Shown here one piece after another: positions 1,401-25,426 of a stretch of DNA of 25,708 nt. The DNA comes from Candidatus Eiseniibacteriota bacterium. GTDB lineage: Bacteria > Eisenbacteria > RBG-16-71-46 > JABDJR01 > JAWXBZ01. The stretch is taken from positions 1 to 25,708 of the forward strand of contig JAWXBZ010000018.1 of NCBI GenBank assembly GCA_034440375.1. Reading direction: 5' to 3'. The notes under the pieces are model-generated. The model searched no databases and had not been told where the DNA came from. It saw nothing but the letters and a program-made list of their open reading frames with translations. Numbering within the stretch: the stretch's first letter is position 1; every line of letters starts with the position of its first letter. The position numbers and the translations under genes were made by a program.

Positions 1401-4400
1401 GTGCCGGATGCCCGATCGGAACAACCGCGCGTCAAGGCGCCACCTGACCCCATCACACTGGGTCTGGCCGGTTTTGAATTTCAGGACCTCTTTCGCCCCG
1501 CCCGCCTGGCCAAACTCGACCGGGCCTTTCTCGATCAGGTCCGACTGGTTGACGCCCCGCTCGTCGACCAGTTGATTGACGCCCGGGCTGACCGCGGCGA
1601 GTCGCTTGACGAGGAAGCCAAGGTTGACCTGCTCATGCACATGGCTCCACATGTGGGTCAGTTCGTGGCCCAACTCTTTCAGATCGAGGCCGCCTCGGCC
1701 CACCTGGACCAGCGGGCCCTCGACGACGCCCCGATCTTCGACTCCAGACGCCTTTTCCTCGAGCGGCGCGTTTTCAAGTCGGTTCCGGATGAGGCCACGC
1801 TCCTCTGCATGGACACGACTGGCGCCCTTGCCGCCTACCACGATGTCGTGAATCGACGCCTGCCGCCCGAGGCGATGACCGACGACCGCGAACTCGAACT
1901 CGGACGGATTGCCGTGATCCTCATGCAACAGGAAGCCACGGCCAAAGCGGGCAGTGCCGAAGCCTTCCCATGGGAGATGGAATCAGTCCAGGCGGACCTG
2001 GATGTGGTCGGCCGCTGGGCCACCATCCTGGCGTATCACCCCATGCAACAGGCGGTCACCGCGACGTGGCCCATTTTTTTTCGGCCGCAACGGCTTGATT
2101 TTGAGGAACTCATCGAGCGGCAATTCGATGAGCCGGGAGTGCCCACGCTCTTTCACGGTCTCGATTCGCATCGCCGCCCCCGGGACGGCTTCGACCTGAC
2201 CGACCGCCGCGGCACGCGTCGCCAGGCGTTGAGCGAGATGCACTATTGCATCCTTTGTCACGAGCGAAAAAAAGACTCCTGCAGTCATGGCTTTCCCGAG
2301 CCGGCAACCGACCGGGTCGCAAAGACCGGCATCGCCGTCGCCCCCGAACCCGGCGGTGACTCCCCCGGGCCACGCGTCCGATCTCCCAAGCTCGGTCAGG
2401 CCTTCAAGAAAAATCCCCTCGGCATCCCGATCACCGGCTGTCCGCTCGGGGAAAAAATCTCCGAGGCCCACGCCCTGAAGCGGGGGGGCCACTCCGTATC
2501 GGCGCTGGCCATGATCATGGTCGACAATCCGCTCTGCGCCGGCACCGGCCATCGCATCTGCAACGACTGCATGAAGGGGTGCATCTACCAGAAGCAGACG
2601 CCGGTCGACATCCCGATGGCCGAAACCAACATCCTGACCGGCGTGCTGGGGCTGCCCTGGGGCTTTGAGATCTATTCGCTCCTGATGCGCTGGAACCCGC
2701 TGAACCTCCGCCGGCCGGTCGCGCTCCCCTACAACGGTCGAAACGTGCTCGTCGTCGGCATGGGCCCGGCCGGCTACACGCTGGCGCACTACCTTCTGAA
2801 CGAAGGGTTCGCCGTCGTCGGGATCGACGGGCTCAAGATCGAGCCGCTGGCGCTCCGCTTCCATGGCGACGACCTGGGAAATCCCCGTCCGATTCGTGAC
2901 ATGCGGGAGCACATCACACCGTTGATCGGCCGGACGGTCCTCGGTTTCGGGGGCGTTTCGGAGTACGGCATCACGGTCCGATGGGACAAGCACTTTCTCG
3001 ATGTGAACTACCACGCCCTCATGAGGCGCGATCGGTTCCTGCTTTACGACAGCGTCCGATTCGGTGGCACACTGGAAATCGATGATGCCTGGGAGATTGG
3101 ATGCGACCACATCGCCATCGCCACGGGCGCCGGGCGCCCTACGATGCTCGACGCGCCGGGGAGCCACCGGCGGGGCATCCGGGCCGCGTCCGACTTCCTG
3201 ATGGCACTGCAGGGAGGTGGTGCCTACAAGCCGACCAGCCTTGGCAATCTCCAGGTGAATCTGCCGGCGCTGGTCATCGGTGGTGGCCTCACCGCCATCG
3301 ACGCGGCCACCGAGACCTCGGCTTACTACCTCGTGCAGATTGAACGGGCACTCAACCGCCATGAAACACTGGTTGCCGAACTGGGAGACGTGGCCGTGCA
3401 TGCCGCATTCGACCCGGTCGATCGCGCGGACCTCGATCGCTGGCTCGATCACGGCCGTCAGCTGCGTGCCGAGCGCGTGGCGGCCCGGGCCGAGGGGCGC
3501 CGGCCGGACCTCGAGAAACTGGTCGCCGGGTGGGGCGGGGTATCGATCGTCTACCGCAAGCGGCTGCAGGACTCGCCTGCCTATCGGCTGAATCACGAGG
3601 AGGTCGAGAACGCCTTGAAGGAAGGGATTGGATTCGCCGACTGTCTCTCGCCGGTGGAATTCCTCCCGGCACCCGACGGATCGGTGGCCGGCATCCGCTT
3701 CGAACGCCAGGCCTCGATCGACGGGCGCTGGAAAGGCACCAGTGAATTCCTGGAATTGCCGGCCCGATCGGTGATGGTGGCCGCCGGGACCCACCCCAAC
3801 GTTTCCTACGAGCGCGAGCACCCGGGCACGTTTGCGATGGACGGCCGGGGGGAGTTTTTCCGCGGGCACCGTCGCGGTACAGGGGGCCTGGATCTCGAGC
3901 CGGTGCCCGAGGGGGCGATCGGATTCTTCACTTCCTACCAGAAGGACGGACACTTCATCACGTTTTACGGCGACAACCATCCGATCTACGCCGGCAATGT
4001 CGTCAGGGCAATGGCTTCGGCCCGCGACGGCTTCGAAGAGGTGACGGCCCTCTTTGCCGACGAGATCGCCGTACTTGATCCGGCCGACCAGTCGACTCGG
4101 GAGAAGGCCTTCGTCGAATGGAACAGCCGGCTCGACGATCTGCTGATAGCCCGCGTGGATCGGGTGACGCGACACACGCCGGAGGTTGTTGAACTCGTGG
4201 TTCGCGCGCCGATGGCCGCCCGACGCTTCCGCCCGGGCCAGCTCTTCCGCCTGCAGAACTATGAGACGCGCGCGGAGCTCGTGGACGGCACGCCCATGGC
4301 CATGGAAGGTCTGCCGGTCACCGGCGCCTGGGCCGATCCGGAACAGGGGCTGATCGGCATCATCGTTCTGGAAACCGGCGGGTCGGCGCGCCTGGCCGCG

Positions 4401-5126
4401 AGGCTCCGCCCGGGCGAACCGATCGCACTCATGGGGCCGACCGGAAATCCAACCGAAATCCCGGAAAATGAAACCGTCCTCCTGGTCGGCGGGGGGTTCG
4501 GCAATGCAGTGATTCCATCGCTGGCCCGGGCCATGCGGGCCCGCGGAAATCGCGTGCTGGCCTTCGCCGGGTACCGTCATGCCGGCGACCTGTTCTGTCG
4601 TGAATCAATCGAGATGGCCGTGGACCGGGTCATCTGGTCGACCGAGGAGGGTCCGCTCATCGAGCCGGCCCGCCCGGACGATCGGAGCGTGGCCGGGACC
4701 ACGGTCCGGGCGATGTCGGCCTGGGCCTCGGGCGAACTCGGCCCGGTTGACATCCCGCTGTCAGCGGTGACGCGCCTCCTGACCATCGGCCCCAACCGGA
4801 TGATGGCCGCGGTCGAGGCGGCGCGGCAGAACGGCCTGGGGCAACACCTGGGCGCCGGCTGCCTGGCCCTTGGCTCGATCAATTCGCCGATGCAATGCAT
4901 GATGAAGGAGATCTGTGCCCAATGTCTCCAGCGCCACATCGATCCTGAAACCGGGCGGGAGTCATACGTGTTCTCCTGTTTCCAGCAGGACCAGCCGCTG
5001 GATCGGGTCGACTTTGACCATCTCGCCGAACGCCTGCGGCAGAATTCAGCCGCGGAAACCCTGACCAGACTCTGGATCGACCGGCTGCTGGCCCGTCGAC
5101 CGCACGAGACGGCGGTAACGACATGA
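1401..5126 (+). CDS. Large FAD/Fe-S oxidoreductase: GltD/NfnB-like module fused to a C-terminal PyrK/NfnA-like (FNR-type, 2Fe-2S) module
   Basis: SD GGAGG before GTG. Cys motifs CILCH..C, GCP, CAGTGHRICNDCMKGC; Rossmann motifs VVGMGPAG and VIGGGLTAID; C-terminal PGQLFRLQ, LMGPTG, VGGGFGNA and CMMKEICAQC...C. Confidence 0.85.
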   Translation: MPDARSEQPRVKAPPDPITLGLAGFEFQDLFRPARLAKLDRAFLDQVRLVDAPLVDQLIDARADRGESLDEEAKVDLLMHMAPHVGQFVAQLFQIEAASAHLDQRALDDAPIFDSRRLFLERRVFKSVPDEATLLCMDTTGALAAYHDVVNRRLPPEAMTDDRELELGRIAVILMQQEATAKAGSAEAFPWEMESVQADLDVVGRWATILAYHPMQQAVTATWPIFFRPQRLDFEELIERQFDEPGVPTLFHGLDSHRRPRDGFDLTDRRGTRRQALSEMHYCILCHERKKDSCSHGFPEPATDRVAKTGIAVAPEPGGDSPGPRVRSPKLGQAFKKNPLGIPITGCPLGEKISEAHALKRGGHSVSALAMIMVDNPLCAGTGHRICNDCMKGCIYQKQTPVDIPMAETNILTGVLGLPWGFEIYSLLMRWNPLNLRRPVALPYNGRNVLVVGMGPAGYTLAHYLLNEGFAVVGIDGLKIEPLALRFHGDDLGNPRPIRDMREHITPLIGRTVLGFGGVSEYGITVRWDKHFLDVNYHALMRRDRFLLYDSVRFGGTLEIDDAWEIGCDHIAIATGAGRPTMLDAPGSHRRGIRAASDFLMALQGGGAYKPTSLGNLQVNLPALVIGGGLTAIDAATETSAYYLVQIERALNRHETLVAELGDVAVHAAFDPVDRADLDRWLDHGRQLRAERVAARAEGRRPDLEKLVAGWGGVSIVYRKRLQDSPAYRLNHEEVENALKEGIGFADCLSPVEFLPAPDGSVAGIRFERQASIDGRWKGTSEFLELPARSVMVAAGTHPNVSYEREHPGTFAMDGRGEFFRGHRRGTGGLDLEPVPEGAIGFFTSYQKDGHFITFYGDNHPIYAGNVVRAMASARDGFEEVTALFADEIAVLDPADQSTREKAFVEWNSRLDDLLIARVDRVTRHTPEVVELVVRAPMAARRFRPGQLFRLQNYETRAELVDGTPMAMEGLPVTGAWADPEQGLIGIIVLETGGSARLAARLRPGEPIALMGPTGNPTEIPENETVLLVGGGFGNAVIPSLARAMRARGNRVLAFAGYRHAGDLFCRESIEMAVDRVIWSTEEGPLIEPARPDDRSVAGTTVRAMSAWASGELGPVDIPLSAVTRLLTIGPNRMMAAVEAARQNGLGQHLGAGCLALGSINSPMQCMMKEICAQCLQRHIDPETGRESYVFSCFQQDQPLDRVDFDHLAERLRQNSAAETLTRLWIDRLLARRPHETAVTT

Positions 5127-16709: not shown

Positions 16710-18260
16710 TTAGCTGCTCTTGCGTGGCGTCCGGACCCGGGTCCCGCCGGACCCCGGGCCGCGTCGACCGCGGGCTGCCGGTGCCGGAGTGGCCGCGCTG
16801 CCGCGGGCTGCCGGTGCCGATGCGGCCGGCCGGCCGCGTCGGGTCGCCGGAGCCGCACCACTCCCCGTGGCCGGATCGGCAGTGCTCGTGCGGCGTCCGC
16901 CGCGCGTTCCGGGGGTCCGGGTCGTGGCCACCCGGGTCCGCGTCGTCTTGCTGGGCGAATCGGTGGTGGGGCGACTCTGGGCCAGTGCTTCGGCCCGGGC
17001 GTCCATGTCGCGTTCCTCCTGCGTTCGGTCGTCGTCCCCATGCGGGGCCGGCGGGCTTCCACCATCGGCCTCCATGTCTCGGGCCTCCGGCAGTTCCTCG
17101 ACGCCGGCCGCCGCGTAGCGCTGGAAACCGTACTCGTCCCGATCGTCAGCGGCGTAGGCCGGCGTCGCGGCCTCGGCAGGAATCGATTCGGCCGGCGGGT
17201 TGTAGACGGCCATCGGAGCCGAATCCGTATAGTCACCCGTAGCCGACCCGGGGGTCTCCGGTGAGCCGCCATCCGGGACGACACCGGTTGATTCCACCGA
17301 GGAGCCGATTGGAACCCCCGGCCCACTGCCCGGGGCGGCGCCATCGCGGCGGTCATCCCAACGACGTTCGTCACGACCACCACGGCGGCCACGACGGCGA
17401 CCAAAGCGATCCTCCCGTCCACCAATCTCCTCGCGGGGCCGGAAATCGCTGCGTGGGGCCGGCGTGGCGCCATTGCCGGGGCCCGCGGAAGGTACCGTGA
17501 CCTCGCGGCCGGCCTCACTGACCACGTACGTGCCGCTGCGCGGATCCGTGGTCAGTGACAGGAGACCCAATCGCTGCGCATCCTCGAGCACGTTCGAGAA
17601 GGAACGAAACCCGTAGTAGGTTTCGTTGAACTGCGGCCGCTTCCTCTTGATCGTGTCCTTGACCATCGAAGACCAGATGACTTCCTTGTTTTCACGCCGA
17701 AGCGCCACCATGGCATCCATGACCAGCGCGAAAAGCTTTTTCTTTTCGGGGGTGACGCCGCCCAGGTCAACCGAGGGCGTGGTCAGCGGGGGCCGATCCA
17801 GGTCCTCGTAGAAGATGAATTCGTCGCAGTTATCGACGAGCAGGTCGGAGGTCGAGCCTCTCATGCCGAGGCCGATGACCCGCTTGCCGTTCTCCTTGAG
17901 CTTGCTGACCAGTGGCGAGAAGTCCGAATCGCCGGAAATGATGACAAAAGTGTCCACGTGGGATTTCGAGTACGAGAGATCCATGGCATCCACCACGAGG
18001 CGGATGTCGGCGGAATTCTTGCCGGTCATCGAGCGGCGGGGAATTTCGATCAGTTCGATGGCCGCCTCGTGCAGCCCGGCGCGATAATCGCGGAAGCGGC
18101 CCCAGTCGGCGTAGGCGCGCTTGACGATGATCTTGCCTTTCTCCACCAGCCGCTCGAGAACTTTCTGGATTTCGAACCGCGGGCCGCGGCGCCCCTCGAA
18201 TCCGAGGGCGAGGTTTTCGAAATCGACGAATACGGCGAGTGAGTTTTCGTTGTCAGCCAT
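16710..18260 (-). CDS. NYN (LabA/DUF88 PIN-like) domain protein with OST-HTH/LOTUS domain and long disordered tail
   Basis: AVFVDFEN, KRAYADW, GKNSADIRLVVDAM, ISGDSDFSPLV; LOTUS-like SMVKDTIKRKRPQFNETYYGFRSFSNVLE. Confidence 0.92.
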   Translation of the reverse strand: MADNENSLAVFVDFENLALGFEGRRGPRFEIQKVLERLVEKGKIIVKRAYADWGRFRDYRAGLHEAAIELIEIPRRSMTGKNSADIRLVVDAMDLSYSKSHVDTFVIISGDSDFSPLVSKLKENGKRVIGLGMRGSTSDLLVDNCDEFIFYEDLDRPPLTTPSVDLGGVTPEKKKLFALVMDAMVALRRENKEVIWSSMVKDTIKRKRPQFNETYYGFRSFSNVLEDAQRLGLLSLTTDPRSGTYVVSEAGREVTVPSAGPGNGATPAPRSDFRPREEIGGREDRFGRRRGRRGGRDERRWDDRRDGAAPGSGPGVPIGSSVESTGVVPDGGSPETPGSATGDYTDSAPMAVYNPPAESIPAEAATPAYAADDRDEYGFQRYAAAGVEELPEARDMEADGGSPPAPHGDDDRTQEERDMDARAEALAQSRPTTDSPSKTTRTRVATTRTPGTRGGRRTSTADPATGSGAAPATRRGRPAASAPAARGSAATPAPAARGRRGPGSGGTRVRTPRKSS

Positions 18261-19513: not shown

Positions 19514-20131
19514 TTGCCCCGGCCGCCAGTGTTTCGCAAGTCAACCGCTCCCTATCGAGTTCCGACTCCCGCGGAGGAACAGGAGCTTGTGGCGGCATGC
19601 CTGGCCGGCGATGCGGCCGCCTGGCGGCGCCTCCTCTCCCGGTACGAAACGGTCATCTGGCTGATCCCGAAGCGATTCGGTCTTTGCGAGGAGGACGCGG
19701 CGGAAGTCTTTCAGGCTGTCTGCCTGGCCCTGTTTCGGGGGCTGCCGCGACTGAAGCAGGCGGCCGGCCTGACCCGGTGGGTGTTGACCACCACCCACCG
19801 TCAGTCGCGCGATCTGGCACGGAAGCGTCGCCGCGAGGCCCCTCTCCCGGAAGAGCCGGACCTTTCGACCATTCCCGACCAGTCGCCGTCTGTCGCTGAC
19901 CTTCATGAGGAAGCCGTTACCCGCGTGGCCATCAGGGCCGCGATCGATCGGCTGGCTCCCCGGTGCGCGGAACTCCTTCGCCTGCTATATCTTGAGGCAG
20001 ATCCGCTCTCCTACCGGGAGGTGGCGAAGCGCTTCGATATCCCGGAGGGGACGGTTGGCCCGACCCGGGCCCGGTGCCTGTCACGACTCCGGGAAATACT
20101 GGAAAAAGAACTGCGGGGTAGTACGAAATGA
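19514..20131 (+). CDS. ECF-type sigma-70 factor
   Basis: LVAACLAGDAAAW, region 2 DAAEVFQAV...LTRWVLTT, region 4 LSYREVAKRFDIPEGTVGPTRARCLSRLR; start codon uncertain (TTG). Confidence 0.92.
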   Translation: MPRPPVFRKSTAPYRVPTPAEEQELVAACLAGDAAAWRRLLSRYETVIWLIPKRFGLCEEDAAEVFQAVCLALFRGLPRLKQAAGLTRWVLTTTHRQSRDLARKRRREAPLPEEPDLSTIPDQSPSVADLHEEAVTRVAIRAAIDRLAPRCAELLRLLYLEADPLSYREVAKRFDIPEGTVGPTRARCLSRLREILEKELRGSTK

Positions 20132-20225
20132 TCTGCGCATTCCACATTAGAGATGTCAGCGTGAATCGCAACGTCCATGGCCGCACGTGGATGGCCTGGC
20201 CGGCCCGAGGAGAAATCAGGTGACA

Positions 20226-20885
20226 ATGCGGGGTCCCCACTTTCGCAAGGCTCATGTCACGGAAGCGGCGTTGCTCGATCACGTCGAGCAACGGCTGAAC
20301 GACGACAGCCACCGCGACATCCAGAGACATCTCGCGGATTGCCACCGGTGCCGTTCGGAGGCCGCCGACCTCCTTCGGCTGGTCGAGGACCTCCGTGCCG
20401 AATCCCGGGATTCGCCTCCTCCGCATCTTGCCGCCTGGGCCCGGATGATTCCCGAACTGGTGGCGCCGCGGACCCGACCCGGGTGGCTCAAGCTGGTTGC
20501 CGATACGTGGGCCGATCTTGCCGGGGGGGCCTTGGCCTCGATTGTTTCTCTCCAGCCGACGCCCATGCTGCGGGGCGTCGACATCCCCCATCGTGCCGGT
20601 CGGCGGCGACTTCTATTTGCCGCCGGCCGGTTCGATCTGGACATGGAGATCGGCTACCCCGGCGCCGATGACCCGCGGCACATCCACGGGCAGGTTCTTC
20701 CCGTCGGTCAGACCCGTCACCTCTGGACGGATTGCGACGTCCACCTGACCCGGGGGCGCGCCGCCTACGCGCGAACCCGCCTGGACCGCCGGGGCGAGTT
20801 TGTTTTCCCCCGTGTTCTCGCGGGTCGTTACCATCTGACGCTCACCGGACCCGCTCCCGCTCGCACCCCTTCCTTCGAGGTCTGA
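20226..20885 (+). CDS. Soluble zinc-binding anti-sigma factor (zf-HC2/ZAS) with C-terminal beta-sandwich (carboxypeptidase-regulatory-like) domain
   Basis: H(V)...HLADCHRC (HxxxCxxC), no TM segment, C-terminal IHGQVL...TRLDRRGEFVFPRVLAGRYHLTL; start 20226 or 20187. Confidence 0.82.
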   Translation: MRGPHFRKAHVTEAALLDHVEQRLNDDSHRDIQRHLADCHRCRSEAADLLRLVEDLRAESRDSPPPHLAAWARMIPELVAPRTRPGWLKLVADTWADLAGGALASIVSLQPTPMLRGVDIPHRAGRRRLLFAAGRFDLDMEIGYPGADDPRHIHGQVLPVGQTRHLWTDCDVHLTRGRAAYARTRLDRRGEFVFPRVLAGRYHLTLTGPAPARTPSFEV

Positions 20886-20887
20886 CC

Positions 20888-23674
20888 GTGGCGCGGCGAA
20901 TGATCGGGGCCGGCAACAAGCAGGAGCCGGCCGGCAACCTGTTGGACCGCGTGGCTGTCGCCAATCGGACCAATCCAACCGAGGCGCTTCGTATGGTCCG
21001 ACAGGCGCTGACGGAAGTCGTGCCCGGCCGCGATTTCGACGGGCGGCTGCTGCGTGCCAGGCTCATCCGCTATCGGGGCCATGCCCGGCGCGCGCTCAAC
21101 GATTTTCCCGGGGCGCTGGCCGACTATCGCCTGGCACTCCGAACCTTCACGGCCCTCGGTGACTGGCACGAGGCGGCCGTGACGCGGATCGGACAAGTGT
21201 CGGCGCTTTTCTACCGCGGCCGCCACGAGGAGGCACTGGAAGCCGCGGAGGCGGGGCGCATCATCCTGATGCGCCTCGGCGACCGTCTCCGCCTGGCCCG
21301 ACTCGATACCAACACGGGAAACATCTTCCACCGGCTCGACCGGCCGGCTGATGCCCTCGTCTGGTACGAGCGTGCGCGCCGTGCCTTCCGCCGGGTCGGC
21401 GATGCCGGCGATCTGGCGCTGGTTGACCTGAATAGCGGCAACGTCCTGATCCAGCTCGGTCGCCTCGACGAGGCCCGGGCGGCCTACCACGCCGCACGCA
21501 CCGAGTTCATCCAGCGCGGACTTGATCTGGCGGTGGCCGAGGCGGACTATGGTCTGGCCTATCTGCTCTTCGTCGAAAACCGCTTCACCGAGGCTCTCGA
21601 GGCTTTCGAGAATCTGCGACCCCGCCTGGAACGGCTGGGCGAGCGACGCCTGGCCGCGCTGTGCGACATGGACTCCGCGGAGACCTACCTCCGATTGAAT
21701 CTCTGGGAGGAGGCCCTCATTCGCGCCGAGCGGGCCGGACGCCTCTTCCGTGCGCTGGAGATGCGCTATGAAGAGGCTCGCTCCGGTGCATTTCTCGGGA
21801 TGGCTCATTTCCAGCTCGGCCGACGCACACCGGCGCTCACGGCCTGGCGCCGGGCGGCGACACTATTCGAGCGCGAGGGAAACCGCACCTGGCGGGGCCT
21901 GCTGCTCCTTTTCATGGCCCGGGCGGAACGACATCTCGGTCGACGTGCGGAGGCCCGCTCGCTGGTCCTGCGAGCGCAGCCGTTGCTTCGCCCCCCGGCA
22001 CCAATGGTGGCAGCGGCCGAGGCCACGTTTCTGCTGGGCGTCATCAATGCCGAACTGGCCAGAACGCCGCGCGCACGGTCTCTTGCCCGGGTGCCGTTGG
22101 CGTCCGCATCCAGAACCGCCAGAAAACTTGGCGCGGACTGGCTGCATCGGGATGCCGAGGAAGCCCTGGGCGAGCTGGCCCGGGTGGACGGAAGGCGACC
22201 CGCGGCACGCCGCCACCTGGGGAACGCCGTGGAGGCGGGCGAACGCCTTCGTTCGATGATCGGCGGCGACGAGTTTCAGGCCGCCTTCTTCCGGGATCGC
22301 TCCCATCCCTACCTTACGCTGGCCCGCCTCGAGCTCGAGTCCGGACGATTGGACGAGGCCTATGCATGGATCGAGCGGGGCCGCGCCCGATCGCTGCTGT
22401 CGGATGTTGGAAGACTGCCGCGACGGACGGCATCTGAGGCGAACCGGGCTCGGGATCGCGCCGCGGAGCTCGAGGCCGTCCTGCGTCGACTGGCCTCCCA
22501 CTACCAGCCGGGACAGGCCCTGCATGCCGGGCAGCGCCCGGTGGCGGGTGCCTCGCGTCTCCCGGACCAGCTGCGTCGCCATCTTGAGTCGCGGGCCGAA
22601 GCACTGATGGACCGGATCTATCCGGTTGCACGGGCCCTCAGTTCACGAATCGACCCTGCCGGCGCGAACCGCCCGCTCCTGTCGGCGGACGAAGCCCTGA
22701 TCTCCTACTTTGAGAACGACGGCGTTTTGTCCGCGTTCGTCGAAACCGCCGATGGTCTGTCGCTGGCGACTGATCTTGCATCGGTGGGCGCCGTGGCCGG
22801 CGTGGCCGAACGGCTGCGATGGCAATGGGAGCGATTCCGACTTGGCGGCAGCCACTTCGAGCGACATGGTCGGCTTCTCCTCGACGATGCCGTCGAGGAT
22901 CTAAGGCTTTTGCACTCGATGCTGGTGGCCCCACTCGCGATGGCCACGACCAAAAGTCGATGGATCGTGGTTCCAGGACCGTCGATGGCGGGCCTCCCGA
23001 TCGCCGCCTTCCACGACGGTCGCCAATTCCTCGTCGAATCGCGTGAAACGGTGGTGACGCCGGGTCGGGCGGTTCTGGCGATGTGTCGGGCCCGCCTTTC
23101 CAGGCGTGGATCGGGGACACTGCTGATCGGGCAGTCGGGGCCAGGCACTCCGGAAGTCGCGGCCGAACTTCGAGCGATCCAACGGATCACCCCGAAACCG
23201 GTGCAGATCCTCAAGGGAAAGGACGCCACGGTGGCCAATGTCCGGCGCCTGGCGGGTGCTTGCCGCGTCCTTCACCTCGCCTCACACGGATTCTTCCACG
23301 GTGAGCGGCCACGACTTTCTGGGATTCGCCTGGCCGACCGATGGCTGCATGCCAACGACATTGCCGGAGAGTCGCTCACGGCAGAGTTGGTGGTTTTAAG
23401 TGCTTGTCAAAGCGGAACTTCCATGGTGTTCGGTGGTGATGAGTGGATGGGCCTGTCGCGGGCTTTCCTCAAGTCCGGGGCCGCCCGGGTCCTGGCCAGT
23501 CTGTGGGATGTGGACGACCGGGCCACCCGGCGACTGATGACCCGTTTCACCGCGGAATGGGCCCGCCCCGGCGTCCTGCCGGCGGCGGCCCTGGCAAAAG
23601 CCCAGAGAGCGTTGCTCCTCGAGAATCGACACCCCTATTTCTGGGCGGGCTTTGAATTACTGGGGACCCCCTGA
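20888..23674 (+). CDS. TPR-CHAT (caspase/separase-like, clan CD) protease
   Basis: Long TPR array; CHAT motifs VLHLASHG (His 23285-23287), LVVLSACQSG (Cys 23405-23407), GLSRAFLKSGA..VLASLWDVDD, HPYFWAGF; start refined to GTG 20888 or ATG 20900, right after the anti-sigma stop. Confidence 0.93.
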   Translation: MARRMIGAGNKQEPAGNLLDRVAVANRTNPTEALRMVRQALTEVVPGRDFDGRLLRARLIRYRGHARRALNDFPGALADYRLALRTFTALGDWHEAAVTRIGQVSALFYRGRHEEALEAAEAGRIILMRLGDRLRLARLDTNTGNIFHRLDRPADALVWYERARRAFRRVGDAGDLALVDLNSGNVLIQLGRLDEARAAYHAARTEFIQRGLDLAVAEADYGLAYLLFVENRFTEALEAFENLRPRLERLGERRLAALCDMDSAETYLRLNLWEEALIRAERAGRLFRALEMRYEEARSGAFLGMAHFQLGRRTPALTAWRRAATLFEREGNRTWRGLLLLFMARAERHLGRRAEARSLVLRAQPLLRPPAPMVAAAEATFLLGVINAELARTPRARSLARVPLASASRTARKLGADWLHRDAEEALGELARVDGRRPAARRHLGNAVEAGERLRSMIGGDEFQAAFFRDRSHPYLTLARLELESGRLDEAYAWIERGRARSLLSDVGRLPRRTASEANRARDRAAELEAVLRRLASHYQPGQALHAGQRPVAGASRLPDQLRRHLESRAEALMDRIYPVARALSSRIDPAGANRPLLSADEALISYFENDGVLSAFVETADGLSLATDLASVGAVAGVAERLRWQWERFRLGGSHFERHGRLLLDDAVEDLRLLHSMLVAPLAMATTKSRWIVVPGPSMAGLPIAAFHDGRQFLVESRETVVTPGRAVLAMCRARLSRRGSGTLLIGQSGPGTPEVAAELRAIQRITPKPVQILKGKDATVANVRRLAGACRVLHLASHGFFHGERPRLSGIRLADRWLHANDIAGESLTAELVVLSACQSGTSMVFGGDEWMGLSRAFLKSGAARVLASLWDVDDRATRRLMTRFTAEWARPGVLPAAALAKAQRALLLENRHPYFWAGFELLGTP

Positions 23675-23802
23675 GATTGGTGGCAGGCAGAAAAATGTTC
23701 GCCTACACTAACTAAGGTGAGCGGTAGCATCGCCGCCTGCCGGTTGACTCAGGGGGGTATCGAGTGTCCACGCGACTCAAATCGCTTAGAGGAGTCAACG
23801 CC

Positions 23803-25170
23803 GTGTCCCAAGACGTCTTCCCTCGCCGGTACCAACTGTTTTTGACGCGGCTATCCGGGCGCGCGACATTCCGTCTGGTTCTCGGTCTCTCCCTTGGCCT
23901 CCTGGTCGGGTGTGGCTCCGGCGAATCGACGCGCCCCTCGGCCCCTTCAGTTGGCACCACACCGACCGTTCCCGCCGGGACATGGCAGATCATCGGCGAC
24001 CTCGACCAGGAAGTCGTCGTGAGCCTTCGACAGGCAACAAGTGCCGCCGCCGTCTGGCTGGATTACGGCCTGGACCCGGTGGAAGTTCTGTCGGACGGCC
24101 GGACCTGGCGAACCTCGGTTCGAGGGCCCAAGCGTCCGGTGGGCGACCTCATCAACCAGCTGGCCAACGACCAGCGAATCAGCGATGTGGAAGCCAACGT
24201 CCCGGTGGGCTCACCGACACTGCGCCAGTCGAGCATGTCGTTTGACGAGGGATTTCCGTCCGCCACGACCTACAGGGACCAGAGCGTGCGCGACCGCCTC
24301 CACCTCACGGAGGCCCATGCCACGTCCCGCGGGTTCGGCGTCATCGTGGCCATCCTGGACACAGGCTTTGACATGGACCACCCGGATTTGAAGAGCCGGC
24401 TTCTCGGCACGGGCTGGGATTTTGTCGACCGCGATGCCGACCCGACCGAAGCGCCGGACGGCCTGGACCAGGACGCCGACGGCCAGGTGGATGAGGCGCT
24501 CGGCCACGGCTCCCATGTCGCCGGCCTCCTGCACATGGTGGCGCCCGGCGCCCGGATTCTGCCTCTCCGGGTCCTCAACAACGACGGCCTGGGCAATGCG
24601 TACTCCGTGGCGAGCGCCATCGAGTATGCCGTGAACAATGGAGCCAGCATCATCAACATGAGCCTCAGTTTTTCCGGACCGTCGGCGGCCGTTGATCGCG
24701 CGATCGGCCTGGCGGTTTCGCATGGCGTCCTCCTGGTAGCGGCGGCCGGCAATTCGGGCACTTATGGGCCACTCGACTATCCGGCATCCGATCCCCGCGT
24801 CTTGGCTGTGGCGTCGGTCGACGCCAGGGAGCAGCGCTCCAGTTTCTCGGCCTGGTCCAACGCCGTGGCCATCTCGGCGCCCGGGGAAAATCTGCTGAGC
24901 ACCTACTGGAATGGCAATTACGCCGTCTGGAGCGGCACCTCGATGGCCGCCCCGATCGTGAGCGGAACTGCCGCCCTCCTCATGTCGAGCCGCCTGGGAT
25001 TGCCGGCCGCTCAGGTTCGAAGCCGGCTGATCTCCCGCGTGGGAATGCTCCGCGGGACCGCCTACGGGATGGGGGCCGGCATCGTGGCTCCAGGAGCCGC
25101 GGTGGGCATTCCAGCAGCATTCGAACAACCGCACTACACCATTCCAATCACGGACTACAGCGGTCGCTAG
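23803..25170 (+). CDS. S8 subtilisin-family serine protease, probable lipoprotein
   Basis: Triad ILDTG (Asp 24358), GHGSHVAG (His 24505), SGTSMAAP (Ser 24940), AAAGN; lipobox LLVGC (Cys 23911); SD GAGGAG favours GTG 23803 (alternative 23764). Confidence 0.92.
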   Translation: MSQDVFPRRYQLFLTRLSGRATFRLVLGLSLGLLVGCGSGESTRPSAPSVGTTPTVPAGTWQIIGDLDQEVVVSLRQATSAAAVWLDYGLDPVEVLSDGRTWRTSVRGPKRPVGDLINQLANDQRISDVEANVPVGSPTLRQSSMSFDEGFPSATTYRDQSVRDRLHLTEAHATSRGFGVIVAILDTGFDMDHPDLKSRLLGTGWDFVDRDADPTEAPDGLDQDADGQVDEALGHGSHVAGLLHMVAPGARILPLRVLNNDGLGNAYSVASAIEYAVNNGASIINMSLSFSGPSAAVDRAIGLAVSHGVLLVAAAGNSGTYGPLDYPASDPRVLAVASVDAREQRSSFSAWSNAVAISAPGENLLSTYWNGNYAVWSGTSMAAPIVSGTAALLMSSRLGLPAAQVRSRLISRVGMLRGTAYGMGAGIVAPGAAVGIPAAFEQPHYTIPITDYSGR

Positions 25171-25223
25171 GCCCCTGGCCGCCTGTTTTTCCACCAAAAC
25201 GTCACCTGATTTTCCTGCATTTT

Positions 25224-25273: not shown

Positions 25274-25426
25274 TCAGGGCGCCCGCTCCTCCTGCCGAAT
25301 GCGCCCGGGGGTGGCATGGTTCGCGACCTAGAATTTGGTCCTGCATCCGCCCCTCGGTCGAACGAGGAGCCTCATCCGGCGAGGGTGAGTGTCTTTCGCG
25401 TCCGGCCCCTCCGGGTGCTCTTTTAG

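Follow-up and report, generated by a model that had tools for sequence, protein, structure and literature searches.

A cassette of four genes on a 25,708-nucleotide (nt) stretch of DNA from Candidatus Eiseniibacteriota bacterium (contig JAWXBZ010000018.1 of GenBank assembly GCA_034440375.1; the whole stretch is hereafter called the window) may bring together the parts of a sigma-factor switch that is controlled by a protease. The genes follow one another in the same orientation on the + strand at 19514-25170 and encode a sigma factor of the extracytoplasmic function (ECF) type, a zinc-binding anti-sigma (ZAS) factor, a TPR-CHAT protease and an S8 lipoprotein protease. This four-gene cassette is genuine and widely conserved. 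We read it as a cytoplasmic, split, protease-gated sigma switch, and give that reading an even chance of being correct. What carries it at the level of sequence is the gene content, the intact catalytic residues, the conserved linkage and the matching compartments of the products; docking of the anti-sigma factor on the CHAT protease has the support of a structural model. A preliminary description of this DNA had already noted four co-oriented genes with a 2-nt gap between the anti-sigma and CHAT genes, and both the coordinates and the Pfam matches bear this out.

Components of the cassette

The anti-sigma gene (20226..20885) encodes a soluble ZAS protein of 219 amino acids with an N-terminal four-helix anti-sigma domain and a C-terminal beta-sandwich, an assignment drawn from matches to NF052375, zf-HC2 and CarboxypepD_reg, from hydropathy and from an AlphaFold2 model. 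Its open reading frame (ORF) spans 20187-20885, and a start at GTG 20220 or ATG 20226 is likelier than the other start at 20187 because GAGGAG is found at 20207-20212 and because of where the orthologue's N-terminus lies; residues are numbered here from ATG 20226. The database matches are weak, both for the anti-sigma part (NF052375, 2.3e-05; zf-HC2, E = 0.011, below the Pfam cut-off) and for the C-terminus (CarboxypepD_reg, 0.02; fn3_3, 0.01). As the peak mean Kyte-Doolittle hydropathy over 19 residues is only 1.17, the protein has no transmembrane segment by this measure, in agreement with the preliminary description.

The zinc-binding residues are strongly conserved. The motif H35-x3-C39-x2-C42 (HLADCHRC, 20328..20351) and the upstream ligand His10 (20253-20255) were identified from alignments: H35, C39 and C42 are present in 119/119 sequences of a family alignment and H10 in 111/119, and all four are invariant in a 19-sequence alignment (A4). 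With an H-x3-C-x2-C motif and an upstream ligand in a helical domain, the protein has the hallmarks of a class I ZAS factor. In the AlphaFold2 model (19-row alignment; mean predicted local distance difference test score (pLDDT) 80.4) four helices occupy residues 13-78, the first three of which (13-61) are of very high confidence, with a pLDDT of ~97 over residues 11-50, and a strand at 89-97 corresponds to the conserved LVxDS motif. A loop of low confidence (residues 100-119, 20523..20582; pLDDT <50) carries the conserved R116 (20571-20573) and is a candidate cleavage loop. Beyond it, the beta-sandwich domain (residues 125-207, 20598..20846), delimited by strands in the model and by confident contacts in a predicted complex, forms the putative docking face for CHAT.

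R116 is invariant in all 19 sequences of alignment A4. The 119-sequence MAFFT alignment gives the motif LVFDS...QP..G.R[SG]....R.LL[YF], with arginine in the Arg column of 117 of the 119 sequences, and places Asp119 of the window's protein in that column, three residues off R116. We attribute this to a local misalignment caused by a 14-residue insertion in the window's protein, since the orthologue aligns Arg to Arg. The anti-sigma sequence matched nothing among solved structures, and a Foldseek search with its model returned nothing at E <= 0.001, the weak matches being Ig-like domains and, at rank 3, ChrR (E = 0.011).

The family is large. Of 1.84 billion cluster representatives (50%-identity clusters) searched with a profile made from the 19 anti-sigma sequences, 37,977 matched at E <= 0.001; 5,777 did so at <= 1e-10 and 613 at <= 1e-30. 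A single matched stretch characterizes 118 of the 150 best representatives, proteins of 184-278 amino acids. The other 32 (P0001-P0009 and 23 more) are giants of 1,221-7,796 amino acids with 11 to 61 matched beta-sandwich stretches, and the domain therefore also exists as a long tandem repeat.

The CHAT gene (20888..23674) starts at GTG 20888, 2 nt past the anti-sigma stop (20885) and at the aligned position at which the orthologue begins. Its product, a TPR-CHAT protease of 928 amino acids that we take to be cytoplasmic, was identified from Pfam (CHAT, 3.8e-54), several TPR families (TPR_12, 1.8e-17), a structural model and Foldseek. In the model (pLDDT 84.6), ~22 helix pairs extend to residue 500 and are followed by a linker of poor model quality, by three strands that form a sheet (602-632), by a helical hairpin (633-679) and by a caspase fold. 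The TPR-like helical solenoid (residues 15-500, 20930..22387; helix pairs H15 to H499) is the presumed sensor part, and the hairpin (22784..22924) is the predicted holder of the anti-sigma beta-sandwich, as judged from contacts at residues 645-667 and from conservation. The caspase-fold domain (22898..23665; Pfam match over residues 671-926) contains the His800 (23285-23287)/Cys840 (23405-23407) dyad, and His796, His800 and Cys840 are invariant in 14/14 aligned CHAT homologues. No hydrophobic segment was seen by eye at the N-terminus. An intact His/Cys dyad, a catalytic cysteine at 23405 and a CHAT protein lacking a signal peptide had been described earlier, and all three hold. The best Foldseek matches of the model are human separase (8.6e-16), DdvA (8rw5, 1.3e-13; 8rot_A, 6.0e-13) and Csx29 (8eey_B, 2.0e-13); the sequence itself matched only TPR proteins among solved structures, and no CHAT protein.

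The two outer genes encode the sigma factor and the exported protease. The first (19514..20131) specifies an ECF-type sigma factor of 205 amino acids counted from a TTG codon, its exact start being uncertain, with Pfam matches to Sigma70_r2 (3.5e-07) and r4 (4.5e-07), a match to the ECF superfamily model TIGR02937 (4.4e-24) and homologues upstream of the anti-sigma gene in 13/13 full-length loci of related genomes. The last (23764..25170) specifies an S8 subtilase lipoprotein of 468 amino acids from GTG 23764, identified from Pfam (1.5e-47, 162.7 bits, profile positions 3-273 of 288), from motifs and from homologues. Its Asp-His-Ser triad is complete (motifs LDTG, HGSH and GTSMAAP) and its lipobox, LVGC, has the cysteine (Cys50) at 23911-23913, as the preliminary description had stated of both; five of the seven S8 homologues examined from other cassettes also carry a cysteine after a hydrophobic stretch. 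Assignment to the mycosins, the S8 proteases of type VII secretion, was considered and rejected (TIGR03921, 186.2 bits, below the cut-off of 278.75). A pattern scan found no terminator-like site between the four genes, weak in-gene matches aside, a weak terminator-like hairpin with a T run directly after the S8 stop (25166..25185, + strand), and a stronger hairpin of this kind at 25398-25418. A scan for sigma-70 promoters returned no site.

Predicted docking of the anti-sigma factor on the CHAT protease

Complex prediction was performed with CHAT residues 80-928 and anti-sigma residues 70-219, each with its own alignment, together with three controls. The pair scored 0.72 (runs 0.72, 0.72 and 0.71) versus 0.00 for the best of the three controls; in the calibration, 58 of the 80 solved complexes score this high, as do 2 of the 110 mismatched pairs, figures that are approximate here because own alignments were used. 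At least 67% of contacts agreed between runs, and the pLDDT of the partner was at least 68. Residues 645-667 of CHAT make confident contacts with residues 91-94, 126-130, 137-141, 154-164 and 189 of the anti-sigma factor. On the CHAT face, the four closest homologues all share Q646, W647, R649, F650, R651, R659, H660 and L664, and R127, D139, G155 and Q156 are conserved on the anti-sigma face. The model thus suggests that the anti-sigma beta-sandwich probably docks on the conserved helical hairpin of CHAT. A solved complex of Csx29 with Csx30 exists, and sequence searches of solved structures link neither of those proteins to the present pair.

Conservation of the cassette in related genomes and across phyla

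A second full cassette is present in the host genome on contig C105, with identities to the window's cassette of 45% for the sigma factor, 32% for the anti-sigma factor, 39% for CHAT and 41% for S8. Anti-sigma matches of any kind were found in 17/41 related genomes, and full-length matches at 13 loci in 10 of the 41. At these full-length loci the sigma gene is directly upstream in 13/13 cases and the CHAT gene directly downstream in 12/13, the remaining locus (L015) stopping at a contig end 70 nt past the anti-sigma gene. Seven weaker matches, which cover the zinc-finger part only, lie beside a sigma gene with no CHAT gene within the 1.5-kb flank, and belong to other ZAS families. An S8 gene adjoins in seven of the eight loci that have a complete CHAT gene and enough flank; it is co-oriented and downstream in five (with two copies at L026) and divergent, upstream of the sigma gene, in two.

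For the survey across phyla, a four-sequence CHAT alignment was run against species-representative genomes and gave 80 loci, 14 of which count as full-length CHAT (at least 410 bits, or two adjacent ORFs jointly covering the profile, as at L039 and L051). Four Acidobacteriota loci (L037, L039, L046 and L056) contain all four genes in the order sigma, CHAT, anti-sigma, S8, and two more (L035 and L092) contain CHAT, anti-sigma and S8, with no sigma gene found by the sigma profile. In four Chloroflexota loci (L045, L051, L055 and L065) the anti-sigma gene precedes CHAT with no adjoining cassette-type sigma or S8 gene, and the anti-sigma factors have two tandem zinc motifs and the same beta-sandwich. 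Two loci at contig ends have CHAT then S8 (L034) and CHAT alone (L036). At L039 (5740-8644) and L051 (958-3961) the CHAT gene is split into two overlapping ORFs, which a frameshift, breakage of the gene or faulty assembly of these metagenome-assembled genomes could explain.

The co-occurrence of the four genes in relatives and in further phyla places the arrangement beyond chance, and the shifting gene order argues for selection on content and against inherited synteny. Because the Acidobacteriota depart from the window's gene order and vary in whether a sigma gene was detected, and the Chloroflexota keep just the anti-sigma/CHAT pair, this pair appears from the loci surveyed to be the constant core of the cassette.

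A related arrangement was found in an actinobacterial genome, that of Spirillospora sp. (reached via L104), in which one locus (L182) has S8, sigma, a protein of ~150 amino acids and CHAT in a row. The short protein (about 1460-1905) matches the anti-sigma profile over positions 57-203 only (E = 6.4e-06); it keeps the G-x-R-G...R-x-L-x-F motif and the sandwich, and the zinc motif and the zinc anti-sigma helices are absent. The sigma factor of this cassette scored 143 bits with the cassette sigma profile versus 17-63 bits for four other ECF sigma factors beside ZAS-like matches in that genome.

Matching of cellular compartments

In the window and its relatives, a soluble anti-sigma factor is paired with a CHAT protein lacking a signal-like N-terminus. 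The same pairing of soluble anti-sigma factor and signal-less CHAT was seen in 10 of 11 further loci, the other (L112) being ambiguous, and in all six loci with a membrane anti-sigma factor (Kyte-Doolittle 2.08-2.77) the CHAT protein has a signal-like N-terminus. A set of exported-CHAT loci from Bacteroidota (L068, L070, L071, L079, L080, L082, L084, L085, L098, L101, L110 and L113) follows another layout: all 12 CHAT proteins examined have a signal-like N-terminus, a convergent ECF sigma gene lies ~700 nt downstream, and a protein of 218-258 amino acids is encoded between the two in 10 of the 12, with a transmembrane-like segment (near residue 45-87) in nine of these ten. These loci seem to form a sigma/anti-sigma/CHAT module of their own that spans the membrane and has no adjoining S8 gene. 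The match of compartments fits direct contact between CHAT and the part of the anti-sigma factor that does not bind the sigma factor. The CHAT/anti-sigma link put forward in the preliminary description thus gains support in silico, from the complex score of 0.72 against 0.00, as well as from the compartments.

Proposed mechanism and alternative explanations

On the reading that we favour, the N-terminal zinc helical domain of the anti-sigma factor would hold the ECF sigma factor at rest, and the same anti-sigma molecule would be docked, via its C-terminal beta-sandwich, on the CHAT hairpin that immediately precedes the caspase-fold domain. The long TPR solenoid would sense a ligand, which would switch on the His800/Cys840 dyad, and the anti-sigma factor would then be cut, most likely in the flexible beta-sandwich loop with the conserved Arg; this loop is put forward as the cut site by way of proposal only. 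The remnant of the anti-sigma factor would be cleared by general proteases, and the sigma factor, once free, would drive transcription of the operon that encodes it and, with it, the S8 lipoprotein; this protease would be exported and act outside the cytoplasm.

Several points weigh against this reading. We infer the cleavage of the anti-sigma factor, the cut site, the trigger and the role of S8 as an output. In the predicted complex the Arg loop and the catalytic dyad lie outside the confident contacts, so the model backs binding and not cutting. When 220 nt in front of each of 11 sigma genes were searched for a shared two-block promoter motif, none was common to more than four of them, and the blocks common to four or fewer were GC-rich words; autoregulation and S8 as a target are accordingly assumptions. 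Locus L027 has no adjoining S8 gene (none within 5 kb downstream), and at L038 and L053, whose CHAT proteins are close full-length homologues (528 and 472 bits), none of the three partner genes (sigma, anti-sigma and S8) lies within ~5-6 kb even at relaxed thresholds, so CHAT also occurs alone. The related genomes are not independent of one another, and signal peptides and transmembrane segments were called by hydropathy and by eye. The profiles used for the surveys of relatives and phyla were partly built from those relatives, which makes their scores, though not the adjacency of the genes, circular. A soluble ZAS anti-sigma factor can sense redox alone, making CHAT unnecessary as a trigger. 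Finally, in the parts of the ECF54 account available to us, the proposal is that the proteases degrade the sigma factor itself (PMC8999054).

The point about redox leads to an explanation that we consider unlikely, in which the anti-sigma factor itself senses redox or metal at its zinc site, as RsrA and ChrR do, and CHAT and S8 are regulon outputs or accessory proteins. It draws on the full H-x24-H-x3-C-x2-C site, conserved in 111-119 of the 119 family sequences, on the solubility of the protein, and on a two-domain build that recalls ChrR, which came up weakly in the Foldseek search (third-ranked, E = 0.011); neighbouring genes may, moreover, be targets and not regulators, according to the sections of Casas-Pastor et al. 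at hand (PMC7826278). It would, however, leave unexplained why CHAT constantly shares the compartment of the non-sigma-binding part of the anti-sigma factor, why the Chloroflexota keep the anti-sigma/CHAT pair with no adjoining sigma gene, and why docking is predicted, and the Spirillospora counterpart has kept the beta-sandwich yet has no zinc domain.

The predicted docking could also be accommodated by a securin-like tether, which we regard as decidedly improbable: the anti-sigma factor would silence both the sigma factor and CHAT, one trigger would free both, and CHAT would act mainly on other proteins of the cell, perhaps as part of a death response or a growth arrest. The predicted binding face, which lies away from the catalytic site, would suit such a tether, the best structural matches of CHAT are separases, which are under securin control, and the CHAT and caspase-like proteases of one type III-B system cut many proteins, as described in the portion of the report consulted (bioRxiv 10.1101/2023.06.23.546230). 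The cassette nonetheless has no defence context, its locus offers no other conserved substrate candidate, and the tether gives the exported S8 protease no role. That the proteases break down the sigma factor and so keep the system off, as has been proposed for ECF54 in the excerpts available (PMC8999054), seems to us very improbable here, given that an anti-sigma factor is present, that S8, as an exported lipoprotein, cannot reach a cytoplasmic sigma factor, and that the predicted partner of CHAT, in a prediction for which the anti-sigma factor was the sole partner modelled, is the anti-sigma factor.

Genomic surroundings

The host genome comprises 3.96 Mb in 264 contigs. The 18 other ORFs of the 25.7-kb window include no cas family, a search across the genome aimed at Cas7-11 not having been made, and no CRISPR array was found in the window; the genome's sole Cas1 match sits on another contig. 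The module therefore stands apart from CRISPR, as the preliminary description had stated. The other genes of the window are ordinary-looking and encode a thioredoxin-TPR protein, a hydrolase, a DinB-type polymerase, TPM-domain proteins, an outer-membrane beta-barrel, an EamA transporter, an NYN-domain protein and small membrane proteins; they look like housekeeping genes. Among named matches, those closest to the DinB-like protein come from metagenome-assembled genomes of Candidatus Eisenbacteria (56-58% identity), which probably places the host in or close to this lineage. PADLOC had no model that matched the sigma factor, the anti-sigma factor or CHAT, and matched S8 with a generic subtilase model only. 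With PADLOC blank for the first three proteins and neighbours that look like housekeeping genes, the reading of the cassette as a defence system, a role that the preliminary description had entertained, was dropped.

Three side observations concern other genes. The NYN-domain protein (16710-18260, - strand; 7.5e-37) carries at its C-terminus a long tail rich in Arg, Gly and Pro; the DNA encoding this tail is ~70% G+C and contains a 33-nt tandem repeat of 2.2 copies (16768-16838). An ORF of 1,241 amino acids (1401-5126, + strand) has Pyr_redox_2 over residues 448-642 as its sole Pfam match. Elsewhere in the host genome, a third CHAT gene (L003, contig C233) is of a different type, scoring 102 bits with the cassette profile; no S8 gene lies in the 1.5 kb beyond it, and the contig ends on its other side.

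Comparison with known systems

To our knowledge, release of an ECF-like sigma factor gated by a CHAT protease has so far been shown only within CRISPR systems (Craspase), and it has been proposed for DdvA. Here, a protease and its presumed substrate are separate soluble proteins without CRISPR parts, which makes the cassette a simple system for study, one that could answer what activates a stand-alone TPR-CHAT protease, where it cuts and what the sigma factor targets. As the anti-sigma family is large (the 613 representatives at E <= 1e-30), a single mechanism would annotate many genomes in several phyla. A literature search on CHAT domains with ECF sigma factors, including ECF54, found no experimental study of a split cytoplasmic cassette.

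The preliminary description had called the module Craspase-like. In type III-E Craspase (Cas7-11, Csx29, Csx30 and CASP-sigma), as described in the part of the source available, the substrate of Csx29 is Csx30: the N-terminal domain of Csx30 binds the ECF-like CASP-sigma, and Csx29 cleaves a flexible loop within the C-terminal domain (PMC10028731). The likeness holds as an analogy of logic, a TPR-CHAT protease cutting a two-domain inhibitor of a sigma factor, here by proposal, and it extends to the fold of CHAT (8eey_B, above). It fails as a matter of family. Membership of CHAT in the Csx29 family was examined and rejected, the match to NF041237 being confined to residues 789-889 and reaching 26.4 bits where the cut-off is 300, and the cassette, unlike Craspase, has no Cas7-11, CRISPR RNA, Csx30 or Csx31 and has a classical ZAS protein as its anti-sigma factor. 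The cassette is not a member of the Craspase systems, and its activation signal cannot be target RNA. Two precedents are closer than Craspase, namely DdvS/DdvA and the ECF54 context.

A soluble protease that cuts a soluble anti-sigma factor and frees a sigma factor, as proposed here, is also found in CalpL/CalpT/CalpS, as a published discussion summarizes (bioRxiv 10.1101/2023.06.23.546230). CalpL, however, is a SAVED-Lon protease activated by cyclic oligoadenylate and linked to type III CRISPR, CalpT being the anti-sigma factor and CalpS an ECF-like sigma factor, whereas the present cassette has no SAVED domain.

DdvS/DdvA of Myxococcus xanthus (PDB 8rot, 8rw5) resembles the cassette in that an ECF sigma factor is held by a ZAS domain tied to a separase/craspase-type TPR-CHAT, and the CHAT protease of the window shares the TPR-CHAT fold (8rw5, 1.3e-13) and has an invariant His-Cys dyad. 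According to the passages of the report available (PMC11506125), DdvA is a single membrane-spanning chain with a cytoplasmic ZAS domain and a dimeric periplasmic TPR-CHAT, for which self-cleavage has been proposed, with the trigger given as unknown; an incomplete active site is reported for it, and its action leads into RseP cleavage. In the window, by contrast, the anti-sigma factor and CHAT are separate proteins (stop 20885, start 20888), soluble and cytoplasmic, and are linked by a beta-sandwich, of which those passages on DdvA describe none (PMC11506125). An S8 gene accompanies the cassette here, unlike DdvS/DdvA, and its regulon is not an island of CRISPR and cyclic-oligonucleotide-based anti-phage signalling (CBASS) genes.

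The ECF54 context, as set out in the sections available, places an ECF sigma factor beside CHAT, subtilase and 'carboxypeptidase'-domain proteins (PMC8999054). The cassette has this context, with strong Pfam matches for CHAT and S8 and a weak one for CarboxypepD_reg (E = 0.02). ECF54 is described without a putative anti-sigma factor in the part of the classification consulted (Casas-Pastor et al. 2021, PMC7826278), whereas here a full ZAS anti-sigma domain sits on the beta-sandwich protein. On the strength of the one Spirillospora genome, the 'carboxypeptidase' neighbour of ECF54 is probably a beta-sandwich protein such as that of L182, and the cassette of the window would then be the same system as the ECF54 context with a full ZAS domain added.

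A broader proposal, which we hold tentatively and think somewhat less probable than even, is that of a widespread, CRISPR-free, cytoplasmic caspase-like pathway in which the TPR part would sense a ligand inside the cell, perhaps a protein that is foreign or damaged, pre-docked CHAT would cut the anti-sigma factor at the Arg loop, and the sigma regulon would end in an exported subtilase; the docking module, whether or not it carries the zinc domain, would explain the 'anti-sigma-less' ECF54 of Actinobacteria. The cassette takes up the DdvA idea in a split, soluble form and matches an ECF54-type context, and is neither unprecedented nor demonstrated. If the mechanism holds, it would revise the published view, as given in those same sections, of the ECF54 context as one without an anti-sigma-like partner.

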